A stretch of 59,667 bases of DNA, the filler included, from Perkinsus olseni (Eukaryota), in the NCBI GenBank assembly GCA_013115125.1. It is 7 parts of 7 records of this genome, joined end to end, with 100 filler letters (N's around TTAATTAATTAA, not from the genome) between each part and the next. Parts side by side here need not be neighbours in the genome. Positions count along the whole stretch, not along the records: positions 1 to 8,492 come from JABANN010000966.1; positions 8,593 to 17,066 come from JABANN010000967.1; positions 17,167 to 25,632 come from JABANN010000968.1; positions 25,733 to 34,166 come from JABANN010000969.1; positions 34,267 to 42,699 come from JABANN010000970.1; positions 42,800 to 51,204 come from JABANN010000972.1; positions 51,305 to 59,667 come from JABANN010000973.1. One strand, given 5' to 3'. Below the pieces are notes generated by a model that saw nothing but the letters and a program-made list of their open reading frames with translations, searched no databases and was not told the DNA's origin. A program made the position numbers and the translations under genes. The stretch's first letter is position 1; each line of letters begins with the position of its first letter. Positions 3,652 through 59,667 of this stretch are shown here, in pieces.

Positions 3652-4699
3652 AACACTGATGACGATTAAAGTGTGATTGAGAAAATGTGCCGTAATGTCC
3701 TGTTAGTTGTGTAAAGGCAGATATCTCTCTTTGGTTGAAGTGGACGTTACAATGTCTGGGGGAAGAGTAAAGCATCTGTATCACATTTGTGCGCACACTC
3801 GAGACCCAGTAAGTTTGCTGTATGGGAAAGCATCTAAGGTTGAAGCAAGGTCCTGCTGAAATCTACCGCCACGAATCAAGTACAGGTTCGGCTGCCGAAC
3901 TTCGGTGGGGGCCCAAAAAACACACTCGAGATAGACAGGTGTAGGCTGGGTTTGACATCGCTGAGTCGCCTTGACCGCTGAAACTTCGAAGCGGGGCTTG
4001 GGTCACGAAGAGAAAGGAGAAGTCGCTAGCATTCCTGGCAGAATCCTCCTGTATCCACAATTACATCACATTATTAATGCTGTGTCATTAGTGATGCATC
4101 TTGTGGATGTCAATATCTGGACTACGGAAGATATTGTCTCATTATACGGGATAGTTTGCAGCAGAAATTCTGCAGCATTTGATCGATGTCACCTGTAACA
4201 AGATAGAATTTTTCAGTCCAATCGCAGCCTGTCTAGGGCAGGCCTTGGCGTGCCCTTAGTCAGCAATGCTCTCTGCTACCCTTCGACAAGGATACTTCCA
4301 ACATCTCTCAGCCAGGAAGGCTTTCAAACCAGCCATAGTATACGCGTCACGTGTTCGCTTGAATATATCCAAGGAAAAGGACGTGAATTTTGTTGCGGCT
4401 AACTTTCGTTGGTTTACAAGCCGGAGGACCAGCCTTGTGCGATGGCAGTGTAGCCACTACCATTTGCAGGCAATAGCATCAAAGGAACTGCCACCGCTGG
4501 ATCTGAAGGGCTGGCCAATCTAGTGGATCTGGACCGAATTGGGCTTGGACGTTCGCTAGCTACTACCCGGTCTTTGGCTGGACGCCTAGTAGTCTCCTGT
4601 TCACGGCGAACGGCCGCAGCCATCTGTATGGATTCTGGGCCCACCTGTGATGAGTCATCACTGATGACATCACAGTGATGTTGTTTACCATCATATCTC

Positions 4700-4945
4700 T
4701 TGGTTTCTGAGAGAGTGGCTCACGTGTATGGCGATCCCGTCGGTGCCATGTGGCATATATACCCAAAGGAACGATTGGACGTCTACACAGACGCCAGCAC
4801 CATCGCGCTCGGTACTGCGTTGTTCATAGGAAAAGATCGTATTCGAAGACGGCCCTTGGCTTCTCCGAGATTCCAAACCACACATCAGCGTCATTGAGCG
4901 GAAGGCTGTGATAAGGGGGCTTTAAAGCTGCTGTATCAATTTGAT
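4700..4945 (+). pseudogene. Second, more decayed copy of the RNase H remnant
   Basis: LDVYTDASTIALGTAL, then HISVIERKAVIRGL* in another frame. Clear nucleotide similarity to 620-890. Confidence 0.6.
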
Positions 4946-6137
4946 ACTATCAAAGACTTCTCGTTGCGTTTCTTTCCTGATGATGATGGAACACGCTGGT
5001 GACCCACGACTCACGTGTCTAATTGATTGCAACGACATGCACAACATATTGATCTGCTGTATTTCTATCAATATTTTTCTCTTTAATCGATATCGGTGTT
5101 GTGTTTATTTCAATTTCGATGACAGTCGGGGACCGGCAATAATAAGCTGCGCGTCAACCAGGCCAGGAGTAATGGTGGCAAGAGGTACCAGGCCGAGGCG
5201 TCGTACGATAGGCATAGTTTATTCGCTGATCTCCATACCAATGATATTTTTGTGATAATGACACGTACCTATGCGGCCTGCAACTACCTCTATTCCATCC
5301 ACAGTGTTCCGATCGGCAGTCAGGTTATTATATACCAACCGTTTGGCGAAGGAACTCTAGCCCGCGATCATACACGACTGCTACAAACTTCAGAACGCCT
5401 TCTGCCGCTGGCTGGTGTGAACATACCCCGGCCTCTCCGTCAGAGATCTTCCACCTCCTACTCCTATGGCGTTTTCGTTGGGGTTACCGTGGAGATACTG
5501 AGTTTTGGACTCTTGGGCGACGTATGCCCAGGCACTCTGTGCGATTCTCTCTACTCTGGTCGTCATCGTTGTCCTTGCGTCACCACGGGGATGATTCCGG
5601 GTTGGGTGGTTAAGCTGGTTATCGAGGCCGAGGTCGACGAAGAGGATCTCAACGGGCAGATTATCTGGCGCAGATACAACGCAAATGGCTCGAGGACGAG
5701 TTTACCATTACCAGCTCAGCTCTCAGTCGCCTCTTCGTTCGACCTTCTCAGGATAGTAGGTTCTTCGATCCTCTTCAGGTTTTTGGGCTCCATTCAATAA
5801 CTCCTCTCCTTGTCAGATCACGTTGGAGTCTGCCTTCATTAAGCCGAGTAGCGTCTCCGGTATCGTCGACAGTACCGTCAACGACGTCAATCAGCATGGA
5901 GGATGCGATCTGGTGATCTGGAACAAAGCCTCTCAAGGCCAAGGCGAGAATGATACTGGAATCAAGCCCCCTAAGAACCATCTGGTTCGCTTATCGCCAT
6001 CTAAATTGCCGGATGATGTTAGGGCCCAGATAATGAACCGAAGGTAGGCTACTGCTCAACTTAGTTGAATCGTGTGAGTCCTTCGCTTGTGCTTCTCCTC
6101 TTAGGTACAACGGCGAGCCAGAGCAGCAGCCTGCTGC

Positions 6138-6395
6138 CAGCAGGCCAACAACCGCAATGGTCAGCAGGCCAACAACCGCAATGGTCAGCAGGCCAACAAC
6201 CGCAATGGTCAGCAGGGCAACAACCGCAATACTCAGCAGGGCAACAACCGCAATGATCAGCAGGGGAACAACCGCAATACTCAGCAGGGCAACAACCGCA
6301 ATGATCAGCAGGGGAACAACCGCAATACTCAGCAGGGGAACAACCGCAATGATCAGCAGGGGAACAACAACAATGGTCAGCAGGGGAACAATCAG
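6138..6395. repeat. 24-bp minisatellite, 10 full units plus a partial one
   Basis: Unit CAGCAGG(c/g)(c/g)AACAACCGCAAT(gg/ac/ga)T repeats from 6138 in steps of 24 bp. Confidence 0.95.
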
Positions 6396-7871
6396 GTAGG
6401 CAGCAGACGAGAAGTTGAAAGTAGGGTATTCCTGTACGCCCCTTTTTTGCAAGCATGCGTCTACTGCCGGACTGGGCGTGGAGGTTCGGCTCGACTCCTG
6501 AGTTTTCCCACAACATGACGGGCAGGGTTGATGATGTTGCTAATTTCGATGTGAGGGGCTTCATGGGGGGGGCACTGCAACGGAAGGACATCATTGGGGT
6601 TCCCTCTAGGTCGGGTCTTTCGTCTCTACGGTCGGAATCAGGCATGTTCAGAGTGAAGAAGGTTTAACTTTCTTTTTGTTCTGCTCATTGCGAGATGTTA
6701 GAGTATGGAGTTGGGGCTGTGCGCGGGGCTTTGGCTTCGAGAAGTTGGAAAAATCACTTCTCCCGCTCAACTTTGCCGCGTATGATGCGACTCTGTTCAA
6801 AATCTAAGTTTGATCATTGCAGGTTCATCTCGACGTTATTAAGGGACGTATCGTCGAATGCCGTGTCTTTACTGATGCTCTCTACCCTGACGTTATTGGT
6901 ATGCTCGAGGAAGCGCTCCGAGGGGGCTACGTAAGCCTTCACTAGACTAGCTGGCGGTCTTGTTAGGAGTTGTCGAGCTCCTCTTGGCCGGTGATCAACA
7001 GGTACTCTGCAGAGTCGATAAGAGAAGCGCTCGAATCGACTGTGGTTTTCGGGAGGACTGCGGCGGGCGAAGGCGGCGAGATACTGGTGAAGTCCTTTTC
7101 ACGATGGTTGACTTCTGAGATTTCTAAGGCGGGCTGAAGGCCAAGAATTCGTCAAGCCGGCCGCTCTGCTTCTGATGTGTTTCAAGAGTACGATCACTGT
7201 AATGTCTCTGGTTGAGTCAATGGAGGAGAATTGAATGAGAGCTTGCACAACAGTACACTGGACAGCGGGATCGCCGCGATCCGATCGCGCCCCTGGACGA
7301 CGATCTGTGTGTTGTGGGCTCTACTCGTTCGCTCTAGGTACCGAAGAAGTACTCCTTGTCTTCCTTACCTTGAAGGGGCATCGTGCCTGCTGGTTGCGTA
7401 CCCTGACAGACTCTGTGCGTATCCTGCTTGGTTGGTTCATCCCTCGGCCGTCGTAACAGAGCAGAGCACTAGATCAACGCCATTCTATTCCACTTATATT
7501 TGCTAATTCTCATCTCGCGTTGGTTGCTCGGCAGCTCAAGCGCTATGTTGAATACACGTATCGGCGATACGTTGTCGCTACCGGGTGGAAGCACGTGTTG
7601 CGGTGCCGGAGAAACCAGCCTCCCGATGAGGTCTTCCTCCCCGGTAACCATGCCCGAATGGTGGGCGAGAAAAAAAGAGAGTCTCTGAGTTAATCGGTGT
7701 TACTGCGTGAAGGGAAGCGTCACGCCCGCTGACTCCGATATTGACGGAAGATTCGGCCGCCCGGAAGGTTCTTGAATCTCGCTCATCCTTAAACACGGTG
7801 AGCTCGCCCCAAACTGTATCGTCAGACCGATCGAGCGGTTGCGGTTTTCCCTCTCTTCCCCGTCTTCGCTT

Positions 7872-8290
7872 ATGCGCTTTATCTACTTCGCTGCTGTGTT
7901 GGGTAGCATCCTGGGCTCTGTATCTTGCAGTCTCAAGCCTATTTTTGAAGAAAGCGGTTTGGGCCCATATGCGCATTGCGCATTGCGCAAGCCCGCCTAG
8001 ATGCAATACGCCAGAGCAAAGCGAGAAATGCAGTCAGTCGTGCCGTTTACAGAAGGCTGGCTGGAAGAGGATATTCAACGCTGACAGCGTTACGCTGTTG
8101 AACAACACAGCGGATGGGACGAGACTGGTAGCTAACGCGGCCTTTGACTCTGAGTTCAGAAAGGTGCGCATGAAGTTTTGGCAAGGGGAAAATAAGAAAG
8201 TCGAGCCGGATTTCTTATCTTCTCTCCGCTATCTACCTACACGGGGTTGGCAGGATTCTCAATATCCCGGTAACTTTTTACAACAGGTGA
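7872..8290 (+). pseudogene. Paralogue of 3028-3651 frameshifted by two 14-bp palindromic insertions; 3' end lost in low-quality sequence
   Basis: Removing the insertions within 7969-7990 and 8077-8098 gives one frame: MRFIYFAAVLGSILGSVS...GPYAQARLDAIRQSKARNAVSRAVYRRLAGRGYSTLLNNTADGTRL..., collinear with the intact copy. Confidence 0.8.
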
Positions 8291-8325
8291 CGTGGCCCCC
8301 GGGGGGGGGCCCCCCCCGCCCGGGG

Positions 8326-9366: not shown

Positions 9367-12300
9367 CACGAAAACTCGTAACTAAGAGAGGCCGCTATCA
9401 GAATCCCGTTGTTCAGCGAGGGGTTTTGCAGAGCGACGTTGTAATCGATCGTGTCACTGGTAGACAGAGGGCTGTCTCCCGGACCGGGAGTCCCGGTTAT
9501 CCTAGACTTCATTGACATGGCTTTATGAATCGTAGTCCATGAGGTAGCATGACTTCGACGAAGCGATCCAGACGGAGACGTAGTCACTCGAATGTCTGAG
9601 CCGTTATAGCTCCGCGTACGCTGGACAGACAGTGAAGGCGGATCTAACGTGGATTGATAGTAGACGCCGGAACGTGTGGAACTTGTCACTGGGGACGGCT
9701 ATGTCCCTTCGTGATGTCACTAGGAGTCATCACGGGAATAGCATACGAATCGTGGGGATCGATCGCGGCAAATCCAGGAGGCCATTGTTGCCGAGCGAAG
9801 GAGGTCTAGCATCGACAACTCACAAGGCAAGGTTTAATCTCCACTGTCATTCTCTGCTCGTAGTACACTGCTACTTTTTCCACAGTCGTCAGTGCGTGAC
9901 GCACGGCGCATCAACACCAACGTATAGACGTGACGTTGCTAGCGTCACCCTTGCGCGCTACCCGTGCTGCCTCACTGAGTGGTCAGCCGGTATCATTATA
10001 CGCCTGTCATCGGCATCCACGAAGCCTGAATCCCCGAGAGATGAGCGATAACCGAATCGATTACACAAACTCAATGCGCTTCCGTTGAGGCTGGCGTTGC
10101 GTGGTCGGCGTCACGAGGGGACGGGATGCAACAACATGATTCTGTGCATCACTATTAATATGCATTACGCCCTGCCTCTCCACGCGGATTCTCACTACGA
10201 GTCGGTGGGATCGATCCATCAGTCTTCCGAGTCGGAATTTCAGATGGCCTGGGCATCATAACCAGCGCCGCGTTCCAATCCTTCTGCGGGGCCTGGCGTG
10301 CGTTATCGTTGAGAATCCACTCGACTTGGTGGTCGGGATTGCGGTCAGTATCGTGGCCTGAGAGAGCCAGCGCTGGGATAACGGGTCCCACAGGTGTCTG
10401 TATTAGGCTTTCTGCTCCAGGTCCAGTGAGAATGTGGAATCGTATCAGCTGAGCTCCGATATTGAGAATTAAATTAATCCAACCCACGCTGCATCATTGC
10501 TTGGTACTCGCTGAAGCACCGAGGTGTGGTGCTTCTTGTAATGTGCAGGACACGCCTACAAGGTCCCAGGCGTGCGCCGTTCCTCTAATTTTTCGTCAGC
10601 CATGTCATTCAAAGAGCAGCTTACGTGACGAGTTCTAGATGACAGATACAGTTAGGGTTCGCTCACGACGATGCCGAGAAGAAGTATGAGGTTGAAAGCG
10701 ACCCAAGCACCCTCTACTATGTTACGAGTTCGCTGCTAGCTAGTAATTGGTTACATTGTGGCGGATAGCATTCCCATGTAATCTACGATCCAGGTTTGTT
10801 TCGAAATGGCAGCACCCTCGCGTTCGTAGCGTTAAGCAGGTGTCGCCAACTCGAGGGGCTAATTCGAGCCTTCTCTCCCGCACTTCACGAACATGGTGTT
10901 TCAAGGACGATTCCGTTACTCGTGACCGCCACGTGTCCGCCAGAACGTCAAGTAGCTTGGCCGGCGTAAAGGACCGGTTCTCCCTCGTTTCGATGCTTGT
11001 GGCCTCCACGGAGTGCCCCCTCAGTGATGAGTTCAACCCTCGTGACTACGACACTGGTAGCAGCATTTGGAGACAGCTCAAATGCATAGTGATTTGTTTG
11101 CAGTACCCTGCCTTCATTTCCCGTTGAACGGAGACGCCCTCGACCCGACGGCATTATCGGGCTACACGGAGGCGGAAAACTTCTACCTAGGTCTCACCTG
11201 AGGGTCGAGGTTCCGAAGGGTTTTGCGATCTCTGCCGATTCAGCTCCGCACGGCACTAGAGCATCTCGCGGAAGGAGGGACTCTGGTGAGGTCCGAGCAT
11301 TACCTCCTATCATCCTTTTCGCGTCGAGCTGATCACACGGATTGGGCAGGTCGTGCATCGGGCAAGCGGATCGGGCGTGGATCGGACACGGGTTGCTTTA
11401 CAGTTGAAGTATGTGCCAGCAAAACAACGCGAACGTCATTTGCTGAATTGAGTGGCGTCGTGTTAAGTATCAAAACCCTCGGCAAAACGGGACCACGGGG
11501 CATCGAGTCGAGAGCAGCTCTTCCCTTCCATCCCAGCTGTAGTACTCAGTAACCGAAGACCTCAAATGATTGCGCAGCTTTTGAGTTGTGCAACAAGGGG
11601 CTATGAGGGGTGAACCCTCAATCAAGTCGACTCTCTGTAGCGTCCGAGAGAGCACTCTCTACGTAATTCTCCAATCCAGCATAGACGAGATCAGGTGAGT
11701 TTTCGCCTTAGGCGGTAACGATTGCAAATGAGTGGAGGAAACACTGAGGGACTGTCGATAGCGCAAAGGCTACCGAAGGCCAAGACGCTTCACCTAGTCA
11801 TTCGAACGTACAGGAGGATCCGATATGGTGGGCGCTTCGGCGGCTCTTCGAAGCAGCATCGGCCAACTCTTGGAGTAGCTCTCAACTCCCGCATGGAGCC
11901 TCCAGCCAGGGTAAAGCAGTATGTGAGTGCATTTCGAGCACCGACCGACTTGCTTTGGGACCAACTGATTTGGTCTGGGCTTTCCGTGACTGCTCTGGGG
12001 CCCTAGTATTTTGGTCTAGACCAGGACTGCTAACGGCATACCTCGAACGTGAGAGTATCGGGAGCACCATGTGGGAGAGTTTGACCGAGCCCCGCCTCAA
12101 GCAAATGACTCAAGATGCCATCAAGATTGATAACTTACTACTAAGGCATAGGCCTAATGACTTCGGCGACTTCTGACACGGCTTGGCCCGAGCAAGAGAA
12201 TCTCGCTCGCAGTTGGGCGCAAGCTCGCTAAGTGCGACAAGACAGACAGGGAGATAGGTTACGCAGTGCGTAATACGCACCACCCAGAATCGGACATTCA

Positions 12301-12566
12301 TCGGAGAAGTTCTCCGGGAGAACATCATAGTCGGACCGAATCAATGAGGACAATGAGTACCGACCAAGACACGACAAGATATTACTGATCTCACTCATCA
12401 TGAGTTTACTCTTACAACTCTACATGGCAAATCCACGCCAACGCCCCGTTGGCTCGCTGACTACGGGTACTCAATGGAAAAAAGTTTCATCATTTACCAG
12501 AACATGAAAAGATCTCGCTGCATGCTAGAAGAGAGTCCTGAGAGGGAGCCTTCCTTGACCTTACCG

Positions 12567-13661: not shown

Positions 13662-14664
13662 CGCAAAGGCTGCTAACCACAAGAAGCTGCTAACAGAATC
13701 CACTGGATTCAATCCAGCCGCCCAGCACGACAAGCAGCCCAACAACAGTCGAACTCTGAGTTGATGAGGAACGGTCAAGAGATCGCGAAGTAACGGTGGA
13801 GCATGCACCTGATGCTAGCTTTATGTAGTTCGTTAGTCGGTCCCGCACCGCAAGCAGAGCGAGAAGCCCTCATAATGCATACGTGCACTGCATGCGGATC
13901 AATCTATTGTGCGTTGTTGTCTACCCAAGCCTGTCGGCAATGAGAATTTTAGATCGAGCCCGCGCTGTAGGCAGGCAGGCACAGGTGCGTAGGCTACACA
14001 ACTGTGTCCACCTGCCTCTGGCATGGTAAGATCGATCGGAGTGGACTCACTGCCACTTCCAAGAGAGGGCCAACCGCGTTAGTGATTCACTGCTGCCATG
14101 CTGTTATCATACAGCCGCTGTGCACCTAGAGACAGCAGTGTAGTAACTAAAGACTGAACAGGGTTACTAGGCGTACAGCATTACGAGCTCGCTTTCGCCG
14201 CCAACAGATCGTAATGATCGAGACCATCACATCTTATGGTTGTTCGGTTGCTAGACTTTTACTTGCTGTAGTAGTGAACGCCATTGAAGTGCTGTGGCCT
14301 TGGCCGTACAGATACAGATTACTGCACACAAACTTTTGTGCGCCCATTGCCTCTGCGTATTAATTTCACTCACGCCGATTCTCCCTCGTAGGGTGTTTGT
14401 GTGAGTATGAAGTCCAACGCCGACAGTACGGTTTAGTTAGACTAGATCCGATAGCTACGAAGGGTTGCTACCAGGCTTTCGTCGCCATATGAAGGATTTG
14501 TAAAATACGATGCTCCCGTATAATGACGAGACACAATGAATAGAATCTGTACCGTTTCAGCAGTGAGATCGAACTCTTTCCCCAGCTGTAGTACTCAGTA
14601 ACCGAAGACCTCAAATGATTGCGCAGCTTTTGAGTTGTGCAACAAGGGGCTATGAGGGGTGAAC

Positions 14665-15031: not shown

Positions 15032-16328
15032 CGAACCCTCAATCAAGTCGACTCTCTGTAGCGTCCGAGAGAGCACTCTCTACGTAGTTCTCCAATCCAG
15101 CATAGACAAGATCAGGTGAGTTTTCGCCTTAGGCGGTAACGATTGCAAATGAGTGCAGGAAACACTGAGGGACTGTCGAGTGTCGACTCGAGGGTCTGAC
15201 GTCTGAGGCAAACGATATCATCATCCTTGTGGTGTCACCACGATGGTGATCGCAGTGAATGAACACGTTTCAAGTGGGGTATCGGGTTCGTGCTTCTACA
15301 TGCGGAGCGCAGTATTCACGTCGTAAGTGTGTGTGAGCCTAACCCTGTTAGGGGTTCTCTGACTGAAACTGAACTCATTGCAACTGAAGGCCAAGAAAAA
15401 GTCGTGTTGTCTCCCGCGCGCGGTGGCTGACCACTTTAGATGAAGCCCTGACCAACTTGATAGGACTCCGTAGCAATGTGATCTAACGAGGGGCCAATTC
15501 AGTCAGGCTTCACAACAGCACCAGCAAGAATGGAAGATTCACGATCGTCGACAGCGTGTACCTTGAAGATAGCTTCATGCAAATCGTGGATAGCGCAAAG
15601 ACAACCGAAGGCTAAGATGCTTCATCTAGTCATTCGAATGTACTACCAAATCGTACTACCTATCGTACCTAGAATCGAAGTAGCCCAGCAGCGAGGGTGC
15701 AATGTATGGAAGTCAGAGAAGAATCGTACGCATAGGGATATGGTAAGCGCTTCAGCACCTCTTCGGAGCAGCATCGATCAGCTCTCGAAGTAGGGCTCAA
15801 CTCAAGGCTGAAGCCTCCAGCCAGGGTAAAGCAGTATGTGAGTGCGTTTCGAGCGCCGAGCAAATTGCTTTGGGACCAACTGATTCGGTCTGAACTTTCC
15901 TTTACAGCTCTGGGGTCCTAGTATTTTGGTCTAGACCAGGACTGGAAATGGCGTACTTCGAACGTGAGAGTATCGGGAGCACCATGTGGGAGAGTTTGAC
16001 CGAGCCCCGCCTCAAGAACACGACTCAACATGCCATCAAGTCTCAAGATTGATAACTTACTACTAAGGCCTAGACCTGATGACTACTGACACGGCTTGGC
16101 CCGAGCGATAAAAGCTTGCTCACAGTTGGGCACAAGCGCACTAAGTGCGCAAAGACAGACTGGGTGACAGGTGACGCAAGACCCATTGGTGGGCATTCCT
16201 CAGGGAACGCCACAGTCGAGAAAAATCAATGATCTTCGGTTTCCAGGTCTGCCGGGTAGACGGGCAGGGCTGGCCATGGCTCTGCCCGCGCGTGATCCAC
16301 ATGCATGGACGCGGAGCATATGAGGACC

Positions 16329-16425
16329 GCTGTTAGGAATTCTTAGGACTCCTAAGAATTCCTAACAGCTGGTCCTACTATCGTTAGTGCTCCTAAGTTA
16401 GGAGCACTAACGATAGTAGGACCAG
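16329..16425. repeat. Two abutting perfect palindromes (20+1+20 and 28+1+28 bp); long-armed excision scar
   Basis: 16329-16369 and 16369-16425 are exact inverted repeats with 1-nt centres. The two centres reconstruct one 8-mer, CTTAGGAG. Confidence 0.9.
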
Positions 16426-16796
16426 TCCGCGATTGACGAACACGATAGGCCGGAAAGGCCAATATATGAAGGGCAACAGTTGCCCGGCAACTACTAGAAT
16501 AGCTAACTCGTAAGAGCGATCAACTTCGCATACACGCGATATGTGTACGCATATACGCCGAACCTAGACGGCTCTACTAGCAACTCTAACGAGGATGACT
16601 CATCGTCGATGGGTACCGACCAAGACGCGACAAAATTTTACTGATCTCGCAACTATACATGGCTTACCCACGCCAACGCCTTGCTGGCTCGCTGACTATG
16701 AGTAATCATTGGAAGTAAAGTTGTATCATTCATTGTATTTTGAGAAGATATCGCTGCATGCTAGCAGAAAGTCGTGTGAGGCAACCTTTCTCGACC

Positions 16797-22772: not shown

Positions 22773-22804
<32 letters not shown>

Positions 22805-45473: not shown

Positions 45474-48319
45474 CCTTCGAGAAGCGACCGGATGGGTCCT
45501 CAGTCGGATAATTTGCGAAGGCATTCTCGCCATCATCAAAATACACCTCGCATGGACTTGCTGAAATTTTTTCATACATCATTGTTCTTCTGAATGGCAT
45601 TCTTCACTCACTCCCTTATCCTTTTCCTCCGAGGCCTCGCGCTCGGGAGTCCCGAGTCGGGAGAGGGTCGATGCTATTACTGATACTTTCTCATCATGGG
45701 CCGTGTTTTGTGTTTGTCTGTTCACCTCTGAGAGGTGAGGTGCTTATAGAGGTGACCTCTCGTGTGGTGGAGGTGGTACTGAGTCTTCCGAGGGTAGGGG
45801 CTCTCGAAAGAGAGACAGATGTCGAACCCATATGCTCTTTACCGCGAGGGTTGGGGCGTCCTCGTAACATCGTCGCGGTCCGACGTCGCCTGCGTCACGA
45901 TTCCTGCGGGAAAGTGCTGTTTCTCAATCGGGGATTGGTCTAGGTTTGGGGTATCCCGAGCGTCAACACAGCTACGCGGTCATCGCCTCCACGAGAGTCA
46001 GCGTGATAACCTATCATCAGTTCCCTTCGACTGATTCGTATTGAGCTTTATATAAACCTTGGAGTGTGAGGATGGCCATCATTGTATGATACCCTACACG
46101 AAACTTGTGTAGTGTAGAGTGGTGCAAACATTGGTCCGTGACGCGCTCGCCCAGGTGGCTAGTGACTCCTAGCTATACCTTAGCTCCGTACTGATATAGT
46201 CTGTAATCTGTCATCGCCTGTCCGTTGTAGTGACTAGCGGCGTCAACCATTGTACGTGTGTATCTGTTAGTTTGGTGAGCGTGCTGGCTCAATTTGCTCA
46301 ATGGCATCCTTCCCGTCTCGTCTGAAGGAGGCGGATATCCCCATCGCGCCCCTTTTGGATCACGCGAGGGTGGATGCGGCCTCCTGGAAGACCGCCTGCT
46401 CCGAACTCTCGGGTAAGGAGGATGGTATCTCTCTGGTGGCGCTATTACTGGTACTTTCTCATGACTGCCAGTTTTTGTGTTCGTGAGTTTATCCCTTGTG
46501 ATGCCAGTAGCCCAGAGTCCCCCTGCCAGGGAATGGAGCCCGAAACCTGGGAAACCAACTTCTAGCACGCCACATACCGCGAAGCAAGTCGTCACTCTGC
46601 CAGGAACTGCGTAACCCGATGGGTTATAATGCCTTTGCAACACTACGGCCGAATATTGGCGACATCTACGATTTGCAAGGCTGCCTAATCATTGATTAGT
46701 AATCAACAACAACAACAACAACCGCCACTACATCCACGCCTCCTACTACTGATAGGCTACCAGCAATGAGCTCACCGCTACTAGTGGTCCACTGATACCG
46801 CCGAGCCCTCAAGTACCACTAGCCCCATGAAAGGTAGCACTTCTAGTGCTGCACTAGTTCGTCTACTATACCCTCCTGTATCTCTACGTAGGCTAGAGAC
46901 TCTAGCACGACCATTGCACCCTGCACGCGGTAGAGGCCATCCTATATCCTAGTGGATATAACCTTCAAATGTCAGTGTCTCATTCTCCCTAGCTAGTGAG
47001 ACTCCAGAAGTCGTAGAAGTTTCCGTCCAAGAATTCTTAGCATACCGGACTCGCCCTTATTGAGAACTTACCGCTTGCCGCAGTGTCCAAAGCGCAATAC
47101 TTCTGCCCACGCTGTGCTCCTGGAATGCTGCAACTGGTGACCTTTCGAGTTGTCCTCGAGGTCATGTCCTCACTATTCGGTCACAGTAGTAACCTTTTCG
47201 AAGACCAACCTCACTTGCAATGCGTCGGAGCCTTCGACTCAAAGGATGGTAACTACGTGGGTTATCATAGCCCGAGCGCGCAGGGTGAACTGTAGCGCTC
47301 AGTTGTCGGGGGGCTTACCATACCGTGGTAACCACAGCAGACAAGTGCTCAAGGTAAGTTATCATTATGGTGTGGTCGTGCCTCCGAACTTCTGAGACGC
47401 TCAAAGACCGATTTACTCGACATACGGTTCACAAGTTTTGCGTTCGTTAGTTCGTCTTTTTTTGCGGCTTTAGTCCGCAATTTTTCCTATCCCCGGGGTC
47501 GAACAAGTATAGGCTCTCTCTTGGCCCAAGAGTTTTGTGAGTTTCACCATCTCTCCCGAAAGATACGAAGCAGCGCTCAACCGATAGATGACGAAGTTAC
47601 GTGTGAGCAGCAATTTCCGTACCTCCTCTGTGTCCCCGTGATCGCGTACCTACTCAGGAGCGAAGATCGTGGCGTTGGATTCTGAGCCTTATTCTCTGTG
47701 ACAGAACTGAACTCCGAGTCAGGCATCTTTAGTGATGCCTTTACTAAGTCGTATGCGAAGGAGTTTAGGCCTACGGTCGAAGATGCGTGGCACTCTCTCA
47801 CGGAGAGATCGAGGCATCACCGCGTCACTGTCGTGATTCGGCGTCACCCGTATTCCGCCATCGGCGCGCGAGGGCTGTCTCTGGCTGAGGGGCTGCCTCA
47901 GCTTAAGATTACCTCGCATAGACACCGCTATCCTTTCTTCTAGGGGCCCTGTGTATTGGGATGCCTCTGCCCAGTAGTGGCCACCCTGATAGTGCACGCG
48001 GAGCTCGGCATATGGAGGGCGTCCGCGTCTATTCTGCTGTGAGCACGGCGCAGGCACGCGCGTGCTAGGGCTACACTATTTTCCGTCCGGAAGGCACAGG
48101 GTGGGCCCAGAGGACAAGGGTTGTTTAGTTTAACTTTCGGATATTTTTCGCGGTTCGTTTCAAAGCCAGGTTTCGCGTTCATCCGCCAAAACTGCCGTGA
48201 GGGCCCATCTGACAGTTCCCTTTGTCAAAATCCATAACCATTGTTGGCCTGCTCGCTTGTCGTGGGTACATCGAAGGTCGCGTGGATTTGCCCACTGTTT
48301 GTCTCAAGATTCCTGTATT

Positions 48320-49216: not shown

Positions 49217-50396
49217 TCCGTGAGAGAATGCTGGCCTCTAGGCAAGTATACTTGGCATGGGTCCACTAGAAGTCTTTCGTACTTTATCATTACTATGAAT
49301 GGCATTTTTCGCTCACTCCCTGATCCTTCTCCTCCGAGGCCACGCGCTCGGCAGAGAGTCGCCGGTATAGCAGGTACTTTTTCATATCTGACAGGTTTTG
49401 TGTCCATCAGTTCACCTCTCGGGTGGTGGCAGTATTGCTGAGCGTCCTAAGGTGGGGGCTCCTGACAGAGCGACAGGTTTCGGAGAACCTGTATCATCAG
49501 TCTTTCTCCAATCAGCTGCGTCGTTTTGCCAGTGAGGGCCATCGTCATTGCAGGCAAACAATGACTTTGGGATGACTACGTCTCATTTGCAGTACCCGCA
49601 ATCTGAAGAGTCTGTTCCGTGTCGCCGGCATGACTTTTGACCCAGAGCTCGAATGACACTGAAATTTTGTATTTAGGATCTCGTGAAACAAGTATATTGT
49701 TCAAATATCTCACGGACCAAAATTTGGTCACCAAATTCTCGACAATTTCTCGAAATTCTCGTGAAACTTTTTGGACAATTTTTTACTCTGAGGCACCACG
49801 TACCAGCTAATAGTTGATGTAGGTTTTAGTATAACCTCGGAGACTCCAAGGCATCAAGCGATATGAGGCACGCGTGGCTCTCGACGCACGGGAGCTTGAG
49901 GCATCACCGTGAGTCACGGTCCGTGACGCTCATGCGGTCCGAGTTGCCCCAGAGCACGATTCTTTGAGCATCGTTGCCACCTCGAACTCGCTTTTTTCTC
50001 GTTGTTGCCCATGTGGCTTAGTGCGTAAAGGTCGTGGCGACGAGAGTACGGACACGACAAATCTCGGGAGATCTGCTGGAATTGAGAACCTTGGTCATAT
50101 TTCAGTGTTCTAACACGAAAAGCGCAAGAAGGAGCCTGATGCTGAACTCATGATATTCTGTATTAACAAAAGCACCTCATCGGGTTGAGGCCTTGGAGTG
50201 ATTACGCACACTACCGGGATGGTGACTTCACCTTAGGGCGAGACCAACCGGAGATGTCCATCGTATGTTGTTGTCAACGGAATGCGGAGAACAGCACCTA
50301 CCTGTGTGCTTTCGCGTATTGACGAAGTAGAATTTCGATTCTGGCTTGGGAGTTCCACCACCCCTCTCGGATAGACGAAACACCTTCATTCTTCCT

Positions 50397-51649: not shown

Positions 51650-54311
51650 TCACAGTAGGGTTGGCTCACCCTCTCTTGTCTCAGAGCGTCGACTATATCG
51701 CACAACACTTCGTTCTTCATGCTGGCCTAAAAGATGCCAATACACAGCGCTCAGTGAAGGCCAGCCCACGAGCTTCTCTGAGCACTGTGCCTCTCTTAGC
51801 AGCTCCCTCCGCTTGGCAACCTCGAACGGGATGTCGTCTAGCGGGACCTGGAGCCCGGAGAGAGGATGCGCTGCACGCCGGCCCAGCTCCTCTAACCTGT
51901 ATACTGCGAGGTAGCGGTCTTGCAAGGAGCTGCCAACATTCTTGGGAGTAGGTACTAGCATGCTTCGACAGGAATGAGACCATCTCTGAGCCAGGCGGAG
52001 CGATGCAGGTTGAGTGAATTTTGTGCAAACCTCACCTGCATGGTCAGCAGCTTCACAGGCCTTCATACCTTCATCCCGGGCACTTCTCAAAGCAGCAATT
52101 CTCTGAAGCGGGAGTGACAACATGAAGAAGCGCAGTTATGTCGATACCAACCTCAGCGACATCGCCCAGCTGTTGTCGGTGGTCCACCAGCATGTGCTCC
52201 TTCACTCGTCGCGTGGACTGGAGGAGCTCTGAGAGTGACACTGTTTCAACTAACCTCCGGAGCAGGAACGGTTGACAGGGAGATTGCTCCCCAATGGGGA
52301 GCACCCTCCCTATCTCCGCGATAGCTGATGGGGAGTCCCCATCAAAGAGGCGTTTCTGCGCAAGGAGCCTCGCAGGCAATGCTGTATTCTCTGCATAAAG
52401 GAAAGTAGACATAAAGAAGTTTTGCATGGCCGCCATGCTATGGCGAACCATTCCAGGATATCGTTTGGAATCCACTACGATGAAACACGACTATCACTAC
52501 TGATGACCTATCAGTGATAGGGAAGGCTGGGAAATTTCCGGCTTCGTCTGGCCAACGAAGTTCTACCGAGCAGCTCCAGGCACTATCGCCCGAGTTGCTC
52601 AAGATGGCGCAGAGATCTGGTGGTTCAAGCAGCCTACCCATGGCCTGCTCGAAGTCTTCCCGAAGATCTCGAGCTGCTGCGTCGGCCAGCCGACCTAGCT
52701 CCTCGAGTTTGGCCTGAAAAGGACGAAGCCAATGATAGTACGTGAGAGGTAAGTAATGAACGGTGGTCAGAGACGAGAGCCCTGGCCGATTCGAAGTCGT
52801 GTGACCGGTCTTCGAGACGAGCTGCAGCTCGTCTGCTTAACGCCTGACATCTGTCCTCAATATCTCCTCTTCCAGAGCAGCAGCCTTGCCGCTCTCCAGC
52901 TCCCTCAGGGACCCATCCATCATCCTCAACTTGGCCTCGCAAACCTCAGTAATCGCCCGCGAACGTGATGATGCTCTCGGAGAGCCCATCAGAGAATAGC
53001 TGTATCTGTTGCCACGACCTCTATCGCGACACTGGCGCTCATCCACCGGCTGATCTAACCTCAGGCAACGCCAGTATCCGACGAACCGAGAAGAAACTCT
53101 CCACAAAAGGGCGGCAGTTCAGGTTGAACTCGGGTGATAATCACGCGGGGATTGCCAGTCACTGGTATGCTATCGAGGTTTGCTGTCGATACGAGTAGTA
53201 CAGCTAGAAGAGGTATTAGCAAATCAAAAGATTAGTCGCGTCAAAAAATTACCAACACGTCCTGGCTCTTACCCCCCTTTCCGATCCGCTTCGCATCGAC
53301 TACAAAGGGCAGCTCGAGTCGTCTCACACCACAATGTTAGGGGAAGGCCGTGGGCCGAACAAAATGACGGCGAGGTGCTAATGCGTGATGACACTGGAGG
53401 CCGCGACGACGGTAGTGAGGTGGTCCTGAAAAACCCCACCATTTCACCACCGGTAAGTATCCGAAAGTTCCGGACCCACCCCTTTGCGTCTTCCGCTATG
53501 CCGCCCTCGACACTCTCTCTAGTGCTACTGCCTCTGAACGCATTCGAATCTTCCGGCCTGGCAGCCAAGGAGGGGGCTGCTGATTGAAGTGTCTCGCTCT
53601 GGGAGCGGGGGTCCGGAGGTGCCTGAGAGAGTTGCTGCAAACTACTCAGGTCACCACCTCGTTGACAATCCCGTCGGCAGAAGCAGCCGAGCGACTAGCA
53701 GAAAGATGTCCGACAGGAATTGTGTGCTCAAGCTGATTAAGTTCTGTCGATATCGACAGTCCTCTCACTGATGGCCGAGAGACGACGCCACTTCAGTTTA
53801 TGCAAGGTGAGTGCTAAGGAGTCCATACCCAACATACCTGTTCAGCATCGCTCCGCTCGTCACTCGCTCTTTTTTTGAACTCCCTCTGGGCCAGTTCACG
53901 CTCGCGTTGCCTCGACGCCTCCAGTGCCGTCTCGAGTCGAGCTGCTCTGTCCGACAGAGACTGCAATTCCTGATAATTCCATGCACAGCTCTGCATCGCT
54001 CCGTCACTCCCGACTTTCGATGCCTCATCCACGAGCAACCGCTGCTCCTCCTCCCTAGCCCTCAGCTTCTCATCCAGGATCCCCGCGATTGCCTCCTTGA
54101 CCATGGTCGCGATAGTTTGGGGATCGATCCCAGCACCTCCGTCAGGCTGCCCAGCCCCACGCGTCACGCTCTGATCAACCTTAGGCGCTTCTTCTGGCCC
54201 AATTCCGTCCACCAATACAGCGGGAGTGCTCTCCTCTGTTGAACCATGCGTTGGACCATTCCTGATCAGTATTGCCAACTCACCTTGCCCTCCGCTCGAC
54301 AGCCGACTCAT
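51650..54311 (-). pseudogene. Fragmented long reading frame with coiled-coil segments, possibly gag/ORF1 of a decayed retroelement
   Basis: Chain of minus-strand ORFs in changing frames (53814-54311, 53269-53640, 52071-52475, 51650-52123) with charged helical stretches. No diagnostic motif, so the retroelement call is a guess. Confidence 0.35.
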
Positions 54312-56843
54312 GGGGGCAATCTGCGGTCTTGCAGACCTTACACTACGGCGTACGCCACTAAGAGACTCGCAGTGGCACTCACATTTCTACAGCATCATTC
54401 TGGTCGGTAGTCACGCGATCTCGGAGAAAACTCTGTGCCCTCTCAAGGGCCTCGTCGACCATCTTAGGGACGGCCCCAGCAAGGGATGTGAGTGGACTCT
54501 CCTACAAAGCGACGAATAATACGTCATTGGTCAGTCAAGGACGGTTACGTCTGCTGGATCAGCTGATGGAGCAGGCAGGCTGACCTTCCAAGGGGCCTCT
54601 TCCGTACTGCCCCGGACGTCAAAGCTCTCCCTCTGAGAAACCGCACTCGGAAAGACGACGAGGCAAATTTTTCGATCTCGCTCAAAAAACGGGCGCCATC
54701 GAGCTGGCCCCGGCTGATCGTTCATCCAGATCCGCTCGTCAATTTTGTTCAGTTACCCCTACAGAAGGCCTACCGCTGCATTGCTGTTGGTGTCGCGCTG
54801 GTGAGCGCCCGGTTCGGCCGTCGCCTCCCTGATCACGGAGACTCTCAAGTGATGCAAGACTTTGGCTGCCCACTTCCTCATGAATGTGCCCGAGTCAATA
54901 ACACTACCATCACCGTCTTGAGGTCGATAGGCCGAGATGGGAGGGGACCAACCAGCACCTACGGATTTTTTCACCCGGACTTAATCGTTCCACGATATAC
55001 CGGGTGCATCCAGGCCCCAACGATACCCAGAGGAGCTACTCATGTTACCGATGATTGTGAAGGGCTCTGGGTCCATGTGGAACTGAAAACTTTGACGGCT
55101 AAAATCAGGCGGCATGATGCCACCGGCATCCCGTCATACGGATGCACTCCCAACGGTGTCGCGGTGATGATGCACACTGTAGGGACACAGTGCAGCGTTA
55201 TCCCTCGTCTCCTACAAGGGGACTTCTAAGCAGCGCTTGGATGAGCTAGTGATAAGATAGCAGAGTGCGTTCAGAACTAGTATTAAGACAGTAAAGAGCG
55301 TTCGAAACCTATCTTGTCATGCGACTTGACGTAGCACTGCCAACACCTTAAGTGACATTCAACACCGGCTAGGACCATCGAAGGTGGGCAACTCGTCGCG
55401 ATTAAAGCATTCTCCCATTGTAACAGACATGAACTGCAAGACTGATCTGTTATCAATTGATAAAAGCTTAGATATAAACTCAGATGCTCATAACTCGTCG
55501 AAGCTCTCGCTCCAGGGACTCCGGGATGTTCTTGAAGAAGACACCCCCATTTCTGTCCCAATGCATCTGGAAACGCCGAAAGATAACGAATACGATTTAG
55601 GGCAGCACGATGACGGACGCACCTCGAGACCGGTAGCCGCATCGACAAGGATCCCCTCAACATGTCGTTCCCGGTTTATGACACCATAACAATGGCCTCG
55701 CTGTGATACGACTTGATAATAGGGTGCCTGGCAAGACACTCGAACTTATTGTCGTTGAACAATTCATGAACTTAAGGTCACTCAACTGAGTGTTGAAAAG
55801 TGTATCAAGATGGCGTCTAATAGAACAGAGGATCATCTGCTGCAGATCGAATGCCTTTCAGAAGGCACAGCAGTGGCATTTTTCCTCCACCGCGTGACGA
55901 AATTAGGCAGTCTATGAGCAACATCCGTATCACGGCTGATGCGGGGGTTGTTCAGCCCTCGTTGCCGTCAGTCAGTCTTCTCGCAGTCAGTTGGAGCGCA
56001 GTTCACGCCTACCGTATTCCTCAATATTCCGACGAAGTCCACTCCTCCACCTGAGTTGATCGCTTCTCCAATATCCCGAGTAAGGCCATCAGGGAGGCGA
56101 CCGTATGTGCGCACTCCCTTGCCGTCGGAATGGATCACTATCCAACTACACACGACGAGCCTGATGGTGTGGCCCGGCCACAGAGCACCGTAAGGGCATT
56201 CAAATGACACGAAATTTCTTCTCGACACTGAGTTGAGTTGGTCCAATACCGAGTTGGAGTTCACTGAACTCAGTTCAGCTTAGAGAATTCCTACTGTAGA
56301 CAGATTCGAGCTTTTCTGATCTGCGGGTATCCGATGGCCGCTTTACTAAAGCAAGTTGCTTTAAGCAACTCTCACAAGTTCTCTACAGCTGACCAAGGCG
56401 ACTCACCATTCGAACTCTGCACTCCCCAAAGAAAATCCACGTACGCGAGGACACTCTGCGATAACTTGCTGAAGTGACTGATAGTACGCTGAAGAGACGC
56501 AGACCGAACCACGGTTGTTCAACCACCTACCCCGCTCAAGAAACAAGTATTAGGATAACTGGTCTATCCCGAAGTTATCCAACTCCAGCATGCATTTACG
56601 ACGCAATAGCGTATCCCAACGTATTCATGCTATATCAGTATGAACTACGAAAACAAACGAAGCGTCGATGAGTCCCGGAGCTTTCTTGTTATTCCAAATC
56701 TTTCGATTTGCTGAAACGATTGTAGTGCTGACATACTTAGTAACGTAACGTCTACACTCTCATCGCGTCTATATACTCTCATCCCAATAAATTTGGGTTT
56801 ACGAAGGCGAGAGTCGTGTCACCAATTCTTCTCTACTCCGGCC

Positions 56844-56959
56844 TTGAGAACTGGCTGTTAGCCAGAGTCTGGCTGACAGCCAGTTCTCAAGTCTGGCTGA
56901 CAGTCAGCTCGCTCGGCCTGAAACAGGGGCTCCTCATTGAAGAGCCCCTGTTTCAGGCC
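56844..56959. repeat. Two near-perfect palindromes (56844-56890 and 56915-56959)
   Basis: The first is 23+1+23 with one mismatch. The second has perfect 18-bp arms around CTCATTGAA. Confidence 0.9.
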
Positions 56960-57339
56960 CAGCCAGCTGAGGTTGGTGCCGGAATGATTGCCGCAGCGGC
57001 TTCCGAGAATCATGGAGCTTAATAAGTCGCTCAATCGGTGAAGGGCGGCAGCGACGTGTCGTGACGGTGATGGCAACGTTGGGCTAGAACCTTACGCGCT
57101 TTAGGTGCAGCAAGCGCTCGAAGCTAATGATTCTATCCCTCAATGGCCTAGTGGTAACGGCTCTGCTCGCAGGGATCAGCATCCTCTAGCTGCCACGGAT
57201 GAGCCTGGCGGGGAATGGTGGAGTAGAGGGCTTAGGGGTCAGGCTGACCCCTAAACTACCGACCTGGTCGGGAGCCTTATTTCGAAAGAGGTTCTCTCCG
57301 ACCAACTGTGACCGAAGAATTGTATAACTCGGTGTGAAT

Positions 57340-58400
57340 CCTTTGACCTCCGAATTGCTGACGTACCCGACCTCCTGTACGTCGCCATTAGCATTAAGAC
57401 CTCTCTGTCCATATCTTTTTCGACGTAGTTTATCATTGTGTTAAGGATGTAGAGAGTAAAGGCCCTTTACGGTTTGAACTGAACCCCCCTCTACTAAAGG
57501 GGGGTTCAGTTTGAACCGTTCAACTTATCACTCAAGTGACTTGAGTCAAGTCAAGTTCTTGTGAGCAGTAACCAGAAAGGAGAAATGTCGGAGAATGATT
57601 GTTTCATTGCTTGGTACCATAGATCGTTACTAGCGCGGTTGAGCCTCCGTATGCTGTACGTATGTGACAGTTATGCACGAGAGAGATATTCGGGGGACAA
57701 TAGTGCCGCATGCTCAAATTGCGACACACGTTCTAAAGGCTTTAGCCTAAAGCGGAGCACCGATGGACCATTGATGAGCCCCCGAATATCATGCTATTGC
57801 AAGTTCAGACATCTTTTGTGCAGTCGACGATACCAACTAAGTCCGCGAAATCATTAGCGTTATTCACCATATCCCGTCGCTGAACAGAGCGATCAACTAC
57901 GGGTTCTGTGTTGACATCACCGATTTTCTCGAATTAAAGAGCTGGCAGACGGATGGGACTTACACATTGTGAGCGCATCATGCAGACATGAGAAAGGCAT
58001 TTGTAACCAAGTAAGACGTCGCCGTGGAGAGGATCGAAGGGTGTCTGTAGCGCTTGTACAGAGCGTGGATACGCAAGATCTGCGAGGACATAGCCAGAGA
58101 ATATCAGACAACAGAGAGACTTCGTTAAAGAGTCTTCAGAGCCCTATGCTCTTTCAAGAACCCTTGAGGGAACGCCGTCGGTGTAAATTTTTTGATCTCC
58201 AAATTGTTGATGTACCCGACGAACCTGGTAAAAAATGTTGCCATTAGCAATAAGACGGTCTTATTGAGGCCTCTCTTTCCACATCTTTCTCGACGGAGTC
58301 TATCATTGCGCCGTGGTTGTAGGGAGTAAAGGAGAGCTCAACTTTCGACTCAAGTCAGATCTTCGTGAGGAGTACCCGGAAATGAAGGTTGTCTGAGTAC
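57340..58400. repeat. Diverged direct duplication (~57340-57600 similar to ~58190-58400)
   Basis: Shared blocks such as ATTG.TGA.GTACCCGAC, GCCATTAGCA.TAAGAC, CTCTCT.TCCA.ATCTTT and GAGTAAAGG. The first copy carries palindromic insertions. Confidence 0.8.
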
Positions 58401-59667
58401 AAGCTTTATTCGATGACGAGTTGCAGTCGCTACAAGTCACCGTGCCTGTTCGTCAGTCGGTCCGGCGATGCAGACCGTCATCCCGGGATGGCGACGTCTG
58501 TTCAAGGTCGGTGACTCTGTGATGAAATGGGTTCGTAATACTTATCCGCTTACCCCTTCGTGGAAAGGTCTAGAGTTGTGACACAACTGTTGTGTCATCT
58601 CCGCGCAACGTCTAGAACCTCGATTTTCACTCGATATTCTTCGTCTCGCCGAGACTATAAGTTATGTCGACTAAAATGCAGCTTAGTTTGTCCGAAATTT
58701 GGGAAGAATCTCGAATCGCCAAGTCAATCATGAGTATGGCACTCATGAGGGGGTGCAAATTATGGCTTTTGGAAGACCTCTGCTGTGACTTCATTGGTCG
58801 AGATCCTCTTGGCGATGCTTCACGGTGGGAGCCCATACGCGGCATCCACTTGAGCGGTCGGTCGTGAGCGTTTGAGGGACTTCATTTCATAATATGAAAG
58901 TCATATCTCAGACTCTCCGTTCGATTCCTATGCTGGGAATATTATGAGCGATCTCCACTAGGCCTGATCGACGCGTTCCATTGACACATCGAGGCGTATA
59001 TCGTGTTTTGGAGTTAACTGAAGCAATCTTTTAATTCCACATCGTGCTCCTCGGGTGAACAGGTTGTAGTACAACCGTCCTAAGCCACGACAAAGTGGAT
59101 TTTTGTTTGCTCAATACGGTCTCCGTAACCGTTGATTCGTGTACCGTTGGAGTACTATATTATGAATTTTGCTTCAACTTGCCCTACCCCGAGATCCACT
59201 AGTCTCGCGTTGGGATAATAGTCGTAGGTTGATATAGGTTTTCAACGCTGAATATCGAGAACTTATTACTAGGTCTTGAAGACGAAGGGGCAAGGCTCGC
59301 GAGATGTGTGGACCGCGAATCACCCGGTGTAGGGTACCCCCTTGTTCATTCAAAAGCTTTGAGGAAACGCATTAGTCGAGATTTGTTGAATACTAGCAAG
59401 TTACAACGTCCCCGGTTCGAATCCCACGGACGTCATTTTTTCCGACAAAACCGTGCAACTTGTGATATGGAGTAGGGTCCCTATGCCGATCGACTCAGAG
59501 TGAGGGTCGGTCCGACTTGGTCGGAGCGGGGGATCATAATCTTGTACGATGACATGGGCCCCCGAATGTGGGAAATTTGAAGTTCAAATTTTGAACCCTG
59601 AGTAGCCTTGAACCACACGAAAGTCGGTGGTCAAACCCATTAGATCGCTAGTTGGGGCTGAACCGCC

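Follow-up and report, generated by a model that had tools for sequence, protein, structure and literature searches.

A stretch of 59,667 nucleotides of the Perkinsus olseni genome (assembly GCA_013115125.1), here referred to as the window, contains 20 exact copies of a 22-bp motif of fixed format. In this motif, bases 1-7 of an 8-mer (X) are followed by the reverse complement of the whole 8-mer and then by bases 2-8 of X, a gain of 14 bp over the plain 8-mer. We consider these 22-mers (hereafter scars) to be, probably, excision footprints of hAT type, mended by annealing of inverted copies of a target-site duplication (TSD). An earlier note on this DNA had proposed excision followed by such annealing, and the reading is supported by a peak at word length 8, the presence of scars in sequencing read sets, one candidate element with an 8-bp TSD, single 8-mers in sister copies, a target-site preference, compound footprints, and long runs of palindromic (P) nucleotides. 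The window consists of seven contigs of about 8.5 kb each with N spacers between them, and every statistic given below is drawn from these 59 kb.

Length, geometry and decay of the motif

The full window was scanned with the 8-mer replaced by words of length k. We counted 251 matches at k=3, 22 at k=4, 1 at k=5, 1 at k=6 (in a poly-G/C run), 0 at k=7, 20 at k=8 and 0 from k=9 to k=13. The corresponding means of 100 second-order Markov resamples were 231.6, 15.8, 1.02, 0.07, 0.01, 0, 0, 0 and 0 for k=3 to k=11, and none of the 100 resamples held a k=8 match. The geometry is equally narrow. In a grid of 36 combinations (k=7-10, left and right offsets 0-2), matches were found at k=8 with offsets 1 and 1 alone (20), and the sole other match was a k=7 case nested within the scar at 6123. 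The enrichment anticipated by the earlier note is thus a single sharp peak with one-base offsets, 20 copies against 0 in 100 resamples. All 14 copies listed in that note were recovered in place and obey the rule exactly, and six more, starting at 4933, 6123, 12259, 12302, 13696 and 49715, are new. It had also been pointed out that the spacer bases are tied to the flanking bases. This is true of all the listed copies, but it adds no evidence beyond the count, because the definition of the motif already includes the spacer rule.

Decayed copies are abundant too. Those with one, two or three broken constraints number 6, 18 and 27, while 0.02, 0.2 and 2.6 are expected (50 resamples); all three classes are far above chance, and the copies therefore span a range of ages. 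The decayed copies noticed before are among them, those at 907, 16592 and 57503 with two broken constraints and that at 59504 with three. We left out of the tally the poly-G/C matches at 8295, 8315 and 8392, the match at 4660, which overlaps the scar at 4647, and the match at 16390, which lies inside a compound footprint (see below). As a result, 44 footprints were obtained, comprising 20 exact, 5 one-broken, 14 two-broken and 4 compound ones plus the host of 16390 (Table 1). Their distribution over contigs 1-7 is 10, 9, 1, 0, 0, 9 and 15 (chi-square p=7e-6). Four contigs carry a footprint every 0.8 kb or so, two carry none, and the number of contigs with scars is five of seven, as the earlier note had it. 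Sixteen of the 20 exact scars fall outside every open reading frame (ORF) of at least 120 aa.

Extra overlapping or adjacent palindromes or near-scars accompany the scars at 4647-4681, 56341-56369 and 57503-57552, which suggests repeated events at or beside earlier scars. The scar at 6123 occupies one unit of a 24-bp tandem repeat of about 14 units (6090-6425). The end of contig 1 (8290-8430) carries long alternating poly-G and poly-C tracts and then (GC)n; these tracts, perhaps an oddity of the contig end or of sequencing, yield spurious near-matches to the motif.

Presence of the scars in independent read sets

We compared contig 2 with the Logan contigs of four sequencing runs (X1, X2, X7 and X10). 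The scars at 9476, 12259, 12302 and 13696 are spanned with 0 differences by contigs of runs from three studies, and that at 16471 is spanned by contigs of runs X1 and X2, again with 0 differences. The expectation that the scars exist in independent sequence is hence borne out for five of them, which are unchanged in contigs from the reads of three studies. Word depth at the scars is about 88-158 in two DNA runs. Runs X1 and X2 look like the same strain, their contig boundaries being identical, and one of the runs may be the source of the assembly. Run X10 is about 3% diverged (13 of 410 positions differ) and spans the scar at 9476 without a gap.

Relative to the window, run X10 lacks 67 and 72 bp (9863-9929 and 11514-11585, with junction homology of 2 nt or none and no TSD) and has 21 and 7 bp added; on inspection, none of these four indels has the scar format or an 8-bp duplication. 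A contig of a presumed RNA run (12134-12625, word depth about 1,200, 0 differences) covers the scars at 12259 and 12302, which lie a short way downstream of the stop codon of the protease. Should this run indeed be RNA, both scars would be transcribed in a 3' untranslated region. The scar at 16471 lies in a multi-copy repeat (16234-16516, core 16399-16457), whose word depth is about 8 times that of its flanks in the DNA runs and very high in the presumed RNA run. Many contigs share the 58-bp core only and diverge on both sides. An extra segment of about 340 bp in this region (16230-16600) showed no terminal inverted repeats (TIRs) and no clear TSD by eye.

The scar as the derived state

Tandem paralogues with 67-88% identity are present on contigs 1, 2 and 6. 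These arrays (1-8492, 8593-17066 and 42800-51204) have a period of about 3.3-4.4 kb, and that of contig 2 includes aspartyl proteases. Eight footprints (7969, 8077, 12259, 12302, 16471, 45642, 16592 and 45723) each face a single 8-mer in their sister paralogue or in further copies of the repeat. The alignment gap is exactly 14 nt opposite the scars at 7969, 8077, 45642, 12259 and 12302, and the flanks at the footprints are intact. For the scar at 16471, the consensus of 7-8 other repeat copies in each of three runs is the single GGGCAACT. The same scar was found in no other copy among the alignable paralogues. The 22-bp scar is the derived state and the plain 8-mer is the earlier one. Homology stops before the site at 4647, 7268, 9476, 15228 and 47224, which are uninformative on this point, and at 4933 and 13696 it terminates at the scar itself. 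Of the empty, occupied and scarred states that the earlier note envisaged, empty and scarred were thus seen against each other at eight sites, but no occupied state was seen in the window paralogues or in the contigs of the four runs on contig 2.

The scars also leave their mark on reading frames. When the copy A protein of contig 1 is aligned with copy B, the frame runs 1, 0 and 2 in turn; the changes fall exactly at 7969 and 8077, the pattern expected from two +14 frameshifts. Copy B, frameshifted twice by scars, is probably a pseudogene.

Target-site preference

Position 2 is T, or position 7 is A, in 22 of 40 cases (p=4.9e-5) among the 8-mers of the exact scars; the addition of 20 decayed copies gives 38 of 80 (p=1.1e-5). 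At the outer positions, a G in first or a C in last place accounts for 31 of 80 cases, but T in first or A in last place is rare (7 of 80). The reconstructed 8-mers follow (G)TnnnnA(C). Hermes, of the hAT superfamily, favours 8-bp targets of the form 5'-nTnnnnAn-3' (PMC10368747; PMC2803484; these two papers, as well as PMC5499845, PMC5873905, PMC8101967 and PMC4490562 below, are cited for part of their text). The preference of the 8-mers matches this published target preference. Moreover, Hermes targets listed in the cited part of PMC2803484, such as GTGTGAAC and GTGTCAAC, resemble the window 8-mers GTGATGAC, ATTTGAAC and ACCGTGAC.

Compound footprints and the proposed mechanism

Palindromes with a 1-nt spacer are enriched in the window (7-nt arms, 53 against 2.9 expected; arms of at least 8 nt, 21 against about 0.4). 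The scan was generalised to bases 1-7 of X, a filler and bases 2-8 of X, where the filler begins with the complement of base 8 and ends with the complement of base 1. Fillers of 8 nt were found 26 times against 0.8 expected, and neighbouring lengths were near chance. There were five 1-nt fillers against 0.6 expected, two of them in low-complexity repeats, and one 2-nt filler against 0.8, numbers too small to interpret. Once palindromic runs were required on both sides, the 20 canonical scars and four compound footprints (16342, 44293, 45723 and 52287) were obtained. Four shuffles gave no compound match, and the counts at k=6, 7, 9 and 10 were 0, 1 (in a low-complexity ATC repeat), 0 and 0. In each compound footprint two separate 1-nt-spacer palindromes independently imply one and the same 8-mer, and in all four cases the spacers are its first and last base. 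The P-nucleotide runs are 6 to 28 nt long and mostly reach past the duplication into the flank. Compound footprints would arise where an element with an 8-bp TSD left both of its flanks sealed as hairpins, these were opened at a distance from the tip, as P-runs of 8 to 28 nt indicate, and the ends were joined without annealing. Ac/Ds is reported to leave palindromic insertions whose centre is the complement of the element-adjacent base, with arms of at most 20 nt in yeast and with microhomology used after hairpin opening (PMC5873905). The window footprints fit this description, both in having offsets 1 and 1 alone and in their enrichment of 1-nt-spacer palindromes.

Transposases of the hAT superfamily, such as Hermes, nick one base into the flank. 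In the mechanism we propose, cut-and-paste transposons with 8-bp TSDs would have been excised from the Perkinsus genome by a hAT-type route, and the flank at each element end would have been sealed as a hairpin with a one-base offset, leaving seven TSD bases on one strand and eight on the other. Both hairpins would be opened well away from the tip, by 8 to 28 nt in the readable cases, giving 3' tails that begin with an inverted TSD copy and are long enough for both copies to be present every time. The two inverted copies, perfectly complementary over 8 nt, could then anneal, and after trimming of surplus tail, gap filling and ligation the site would hold bases 1-7 of X, its reverse complement and bases 2-8 of X, +14 bp. 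The canonical 22-mer follows from this route because annealing, flap removal, fill-in and ligation of inverted TSD copies give exactly that product. We infer the element formerly at each site, the hAT identity of its transposase, and the host enzymes for opening, annealing, trimming and ligation.

The scar had been called near-deterministic. This is true among footprints that keep both TSD copies and extends no further, as deletion footprints are invisible to the scans. A broader proposal, which we regard as possible but rather doubtful, is that in Perkinsus the repair of hairpin-capped transposon breaks is almost deterministic: hairpins would be opened far from the tip and the ends joined via the 8-nt inverted TSD copies, perhaps with tip-proximal hairpin opening or classical end joining weak or missing. 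Scars in the genome would in that case number in the tens of thousands.

Candidate element and alternative explanations

A shuffle-controlled scan of the window for TIRs flanked by an exact 8-bp direct repeat gave one candidate occupied site, with an element at 22022-24547, and 0 in 20 shuffles. An element with an 8-bp TSD, which the earlier note presupposed, is thus present as a candidate, with exact 10-nt TIRs. Relaxed scans with TSD lengths of 6, 7, 9 and 10 gave 2, 2, 0 and 0 weak matches. The candidate element has no long ORF, and Pfam was negative on its 10 longest stop-to-stop frames.

Several observations weigh against a hAT origin. The candidate is a single copy in the window and its mobility is putative, and its TIRs begin with CTCCAGG instead of CA, the start of the hAT TIR consensus (PMC4423477, Table 1). 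Pfam recognised no transposase domain in 28 of 40 ORFs of at least 120 aa plus the 10 frames of the candidate, with matches to aspartyl protease and WD40 only; within the same set there was no Hermes-like transposase, BED finger or hAT dimerisation domain. The reports consulted on Perkinsus marinus concern Dada (TSD of 6-7 bp) and Merlin-related transposons (the cited part of PMC8101967 for Merlin), not hAT. No site was seen in both the occupied and the scarred state in the window or in the contigs of the four runs on contig 2, and among the 12 indels listed there was no 14-nt presence/absence difference at the five contig 2 scars, contigs being prone to drop rare variants. Finally, scars outnumber candidate elements by about 44 to 1, an excess that needs very efficient excision or loss of the family. 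Because no transposase was found, the hAT assignment rests on footprint geometry and target preference. Metagenome scans with the protease and with a 30-mer of the multi-copy repeat gave no matches, and the papers found on Perkinsus transformation and CRISPR contained nothing usable on Ku, Lig4 or hairpin opening.

The same chemistry, namely flank hairpins, an 8-bp TSD and annealing, might belong to another superfamily, either a C/DxxH one related to hAT or an undescribed one, and Mutator-like elements (MULEs), P, Kolobok-like and Merlin-like elements come into question; we think this unlikely. The MULE Muta1 does form flank hairpins and has TSDs of 8 or 9 bp (PMC5499845), Merlin has TSDs of 8-9 bp and related ORFs in P. 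marinus (PMC8101967), the TIR start of the candidate element is not hAT-like, and no hAT is shown in Perkinsus in the literature found. However, the 8-mers follow nTnnnnAn, the preference published for Hermes, and the hairpin intermediate is not mentioned for Merlin in the cited part of PMC8101967. MULEs have TSDs of 8-10 bp, mainly 9, and long TIRs, and would give part of their signal at k=9 or 10, where the counts are zero, while the candidate TIRs measure 10 nt. Excision of Muta1 in yeast is >90% precise, which its authors call a footprint pattern different from that of hAT (PMC5499845).

Even less probable, in our view, is an origin independent of transposons, through a host nuclease (for example a domesticated transposase) that makes paired hairpin breaks, or through template switching or polymerase-theta snap-back synthesis. 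Scars far outnumbering elements would agree with it, and in C. elegans, breaks made by transposons or Cas9 are known to receive templated inserts during polymerase-theta end joining (PMC4490562). Those inserts, however, vary in size and come with small deletions (PMC4490562), whereas the filler of the scars is fixed at 8 nt, with one-base offsets on both sides and intact flanks. In addition, a compound footprint requires two separate hairpin ends with an 8-bp duplication in common, the site preference matches a transposase family, and a domesticated nuclease, too, would have to cut after an 8-bp duplication had been made, the very step that insertion performs. It is hardly credible that library preparation, sequencing or assembly created the motif as an artefact, although a rigid, sequence-independent format could come from a deterministic artefact and runs X1 and X2, with identical contig boundaries, may be one strain, with the assembly possibly derived from one of them. 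Five scars recur with 0 differences in contigs of three studies, and one is present in the diverged sample; copies with 1 to 3 substitutions are far above chance and indicate a range of ages; the scars are specific to one paralogue; and the contig spread is uneven (chi-square p=7e-6) and the sites show a preference. Excision of the hAT type with annealing of the inverted TSD copies is the reading that we retain as probable.

Other features of the window

The window also holds a 670-aa WD40 ORF on contig 4, with 96% identity to a Perkinsus olseni protein, and an aspartyl protease ORF on the scar-rich contig 2, with 83-92% identity to several P. olseni proteins. Searches of the window for tRNAs and Rfam families were negative. 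Contig 5 (34267-42699) has a GC content of 40.7%, compared with about 51% in the other six contigs, and contains dense trinucleotide repeats (ATC/GAT, ACT, CAG) and no scars. At 14665-15032, a 368-bp insertion breaks one repeat copy, the intact copy being at 11532-11758 (98-100% identity). It was considered as a related element and ruled out by its 4-bp duplication (GAAC) and absent TIRs; it is a different, recent insertion type.

Table 1. Scars, compound footprints and candidate occupied site in the window (new, beyond the list of the earlier note)
Feature	X	Position	Strand	Evidence and remarks
Exact scar	GTGATGAC	4647..4668	.	motif scan
Exact scar, new	GTATCAAA	4933..4954	.	motif scan; paralogue homology stops here
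Exact scar, new	GCAGCAGG	6123..6144	.	motif scan; within 24-bp tandem repeat
Exact scar	GGATCGCG	7268..7289	.	motif scan
Exact scar, frameshifts paralogous reading frame	ATGCGCAA	7969..7990	.	motif scan; exact 14-nt paralogue gap
Exact scar, frameshifts paralogous reading frame	AACGCTGT	8077..8098	.	motif scan; paralogue AACGCTCT, exact 14-nt gap
Exact scar	CTCCCGGT	9476..9497	.	motif scan; contigs of runs X1, X2, X7, 0 differences; run X10, 0 gaps
Exact scar, new	TTACGCAC	12259..12280	.	motif scan; sister single TGACGCAA; contigs of runs X1, X2, X7
Exact scar, new	CGGAGAAC	12302..12323	.	motif scan; sister single CAGGGAAC; contigs of runs X1, X2, X7
Exact scar upstream of aspartyl protease coding part, new	GAATCCAG	13696..13717	.	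motif scan; sister GAATCCCG, homology ends; contigs of runs X1, X2, X7
Exact scar in one multi-copy repeat copy	GGGCAACT	16471..16492	.	motif scan; other copies single 8-mer
Exact scar	CTAAGTAC	17648..17669	.	motif scan
Exact scar	CTAATCAA	46685..46706	.	motif scan
Exact scar, new	GACCAAAT	49715..49736	.	motif scan
Exact scar	ACCGTGAC	49906..49927	.	motif scan
Exact scar	GAGTTCAG	56257..56278	.	motif scan
Exact scar	AAAGCAAC	56348..56369	.	motif scan
Exact scar	CTCAAGTC	57531..57552	.	motif scan
Exact scar	AGTTGTGT	58574..58595	.	motif scan
Exact scar	ATTTGAAC	59575..59596	.	motif scan
Compound footprint	CTTAGGAG	16342..16404	.	49-nt filler: 20 + 28 P nucleotides, 1-nt overlap
Compound footprint	GCGTGAAC	44293..44322	.	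reverse complement of X twice between arms; insert absent in paralogue (approximate gap)
Compound footprint	CACCTCTC	45723..45761	.	25-nt filler, P-runs 8 and 6; paralogue single, identical CACCTCTC, 31-nt gap
Compound footprint	CTCCCCAT	52287..52342	.	42-nt filler, P-runs 9 and 9, middle 22 nt unexplained
Scar, one broken constraint		45642..45663	.	decayed-copy scan; exact 14-nt paralogue gap
Scar, one broken constraint		46836..46857	.	decayed-copy scan
Scar, one broken constraint		52424..52445	.	decayed-copy scan
Scar, one broken constraint		57732..57753	.	decayed-copy scan
Scar, one broken constraint		58885..58906	.	decayed-copy scan
Decayed scar, two broken constraints		907..928	.	decayed-copy scan
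Decayed scar, two broken constraints		3886..3907	.	decayed-copy scan
Decayed scar, two broken constraints		5655..5676	.	decayed-copy scan
Decayed scar, two broken constraints		7557..7578	.	decayed-copy scan
Decayed scar, two broken constraints		15228..15249	.	decayed-copy scan
Decayed scar, two broken constraints		16592..16613	.	decayed-copy scan; sister single ACAATGAG
Decayed scar, two broken constraints		47224..47245	.	decayed-copy scan
Decayed scar, two broken constraints		47518..47539	.	decayed-copy scan
Decayed scar, two broken constraints		52500..52521	.	decayed-copy scan
Decayed scar, two broken constraints		55109..55130	.	decayed-copy scan
Decayed scar, two broken constraints		56506..56527	.	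decayed-copy scan
Decayed scar, two broken constraints		56860..56881	.	decayed-copy scan
Decayed scar, two broken constraints		57503..57524	.	decayed-copy scan
Decayed scar, two broken constraints		58250..58271	.	decayed-copy scan
Candidate occupied site		22014..24555	.	2,526-bp element 22022-24547, exact 10-nt TIRs CTCCAGGCCG, exact 8-bp direct repeat ATCGAACC

Significance and comparison with known systems

Excision footprints are usually too short or variable to be recognised without the element, which leaves past cut-and-paste activity invisible after element loss. With a 22-bp signature of fixed form, footprints become countable and their decay gives an age, so that transposon traffic and the favoured route of double-strand-break repair can be measured directly in a non-model alveolate, without any experiment. 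It also represents a recurrent +14 bp mutation, which frameshifts genes (7969, 8077) and plants small palindromes in untranslated regions. The presence or absence of scars supplies characters for distinguishing Perkinsus strains and species, and the same scan is applicable to any genome to find where this repair outcome dominates. If repair is nearly deterministic, every excision that keeps its flanks would write the same 22-bp signature, which might be more frequent than any other class of indel in the genome and might cause frameshifts in multi-copy gene families, and the scars would form a countable, datable fossil record of a transposon family now nearly extinct.

Footprints of hAT-type hairpins with P nucleotides are already known. 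What is new, as far as our literature search reaches, is the dominance of the full inverted-TSD annealing product and its density as fixed natural variation in Perkinsus. No earlier description of the 22-bp product was found in the main texts of the articles searched, and the yeast or Arabidopsis Ac/Ds footprint sets may include it. The introners of Amoebophrya were considered as a parallel and set aside, the inverted and direct repeats at intron ends being a different thing.

Ac/Ds in plants, budding yeast and Candida albicans shares with the window the palindromic P-nucleotide insertions, hairpin microhomology and 8-bp TSD (PMC5873905). Its spectra, however, are heterogeneous and mostly short, with 28 footprint types in 128 Candida revertants (PMC5873905), whereas in the window one full-annealing product makes up 20 exact and about 20 decayed copies of the 44 recognisable footprints. 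Hermes and hobo have the 8-bp TSD, the nTnnnnAn preference and the flank hairpins (PMC10368747; PMC2803484); they differ in their hosts, insects as opposed to an alveolate parasite, and the window ORFs and element frames scanned gave no match to a Hermes-like transposase. V(D)J coding joints and Transib resemble the window in the off-centre opening of hairpin-sealed flanks, which gives palindromic additions (PMC2803484; PMC5499845). Unlike in the window, the P nucleotides of V(D)J coding joints are short. Transib elements have a TSD of 5 bp, and at k=5 the window gives 1 match against 1.02 expected, without a signal of the Transib/RAG type.

Muta1 likewise has flank hairpins and a TSD of 8 or 9 bp, but it differs in its mostly precise excision and its 145-bp TIRs (PMC5499845), and the window is without a k=9 signal. 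The polymerase-theta scars of C. elegans are, like those of the window, small heritable scars of transposon breaks that shape natural variation, formed by 3' tail annealing and then synthesis. They involve single-nucleotide homology, deletions of about 7-13 bp and occasional templated inserts (PMC4490562), unlike a fixed +14 bp inverted triplication. A catalogue of fixed excision footprints also exists for rice (O. sativa against O. glaberrima). There, 94 putative excisions were found in 63% of two genomes, of which 8 were 'perfect' and most had deletions or filler, and 9 hAT transpositions were recorded (PMC4423477); the window, in contrast, holds about 44 footprints of one format in 59 kb.

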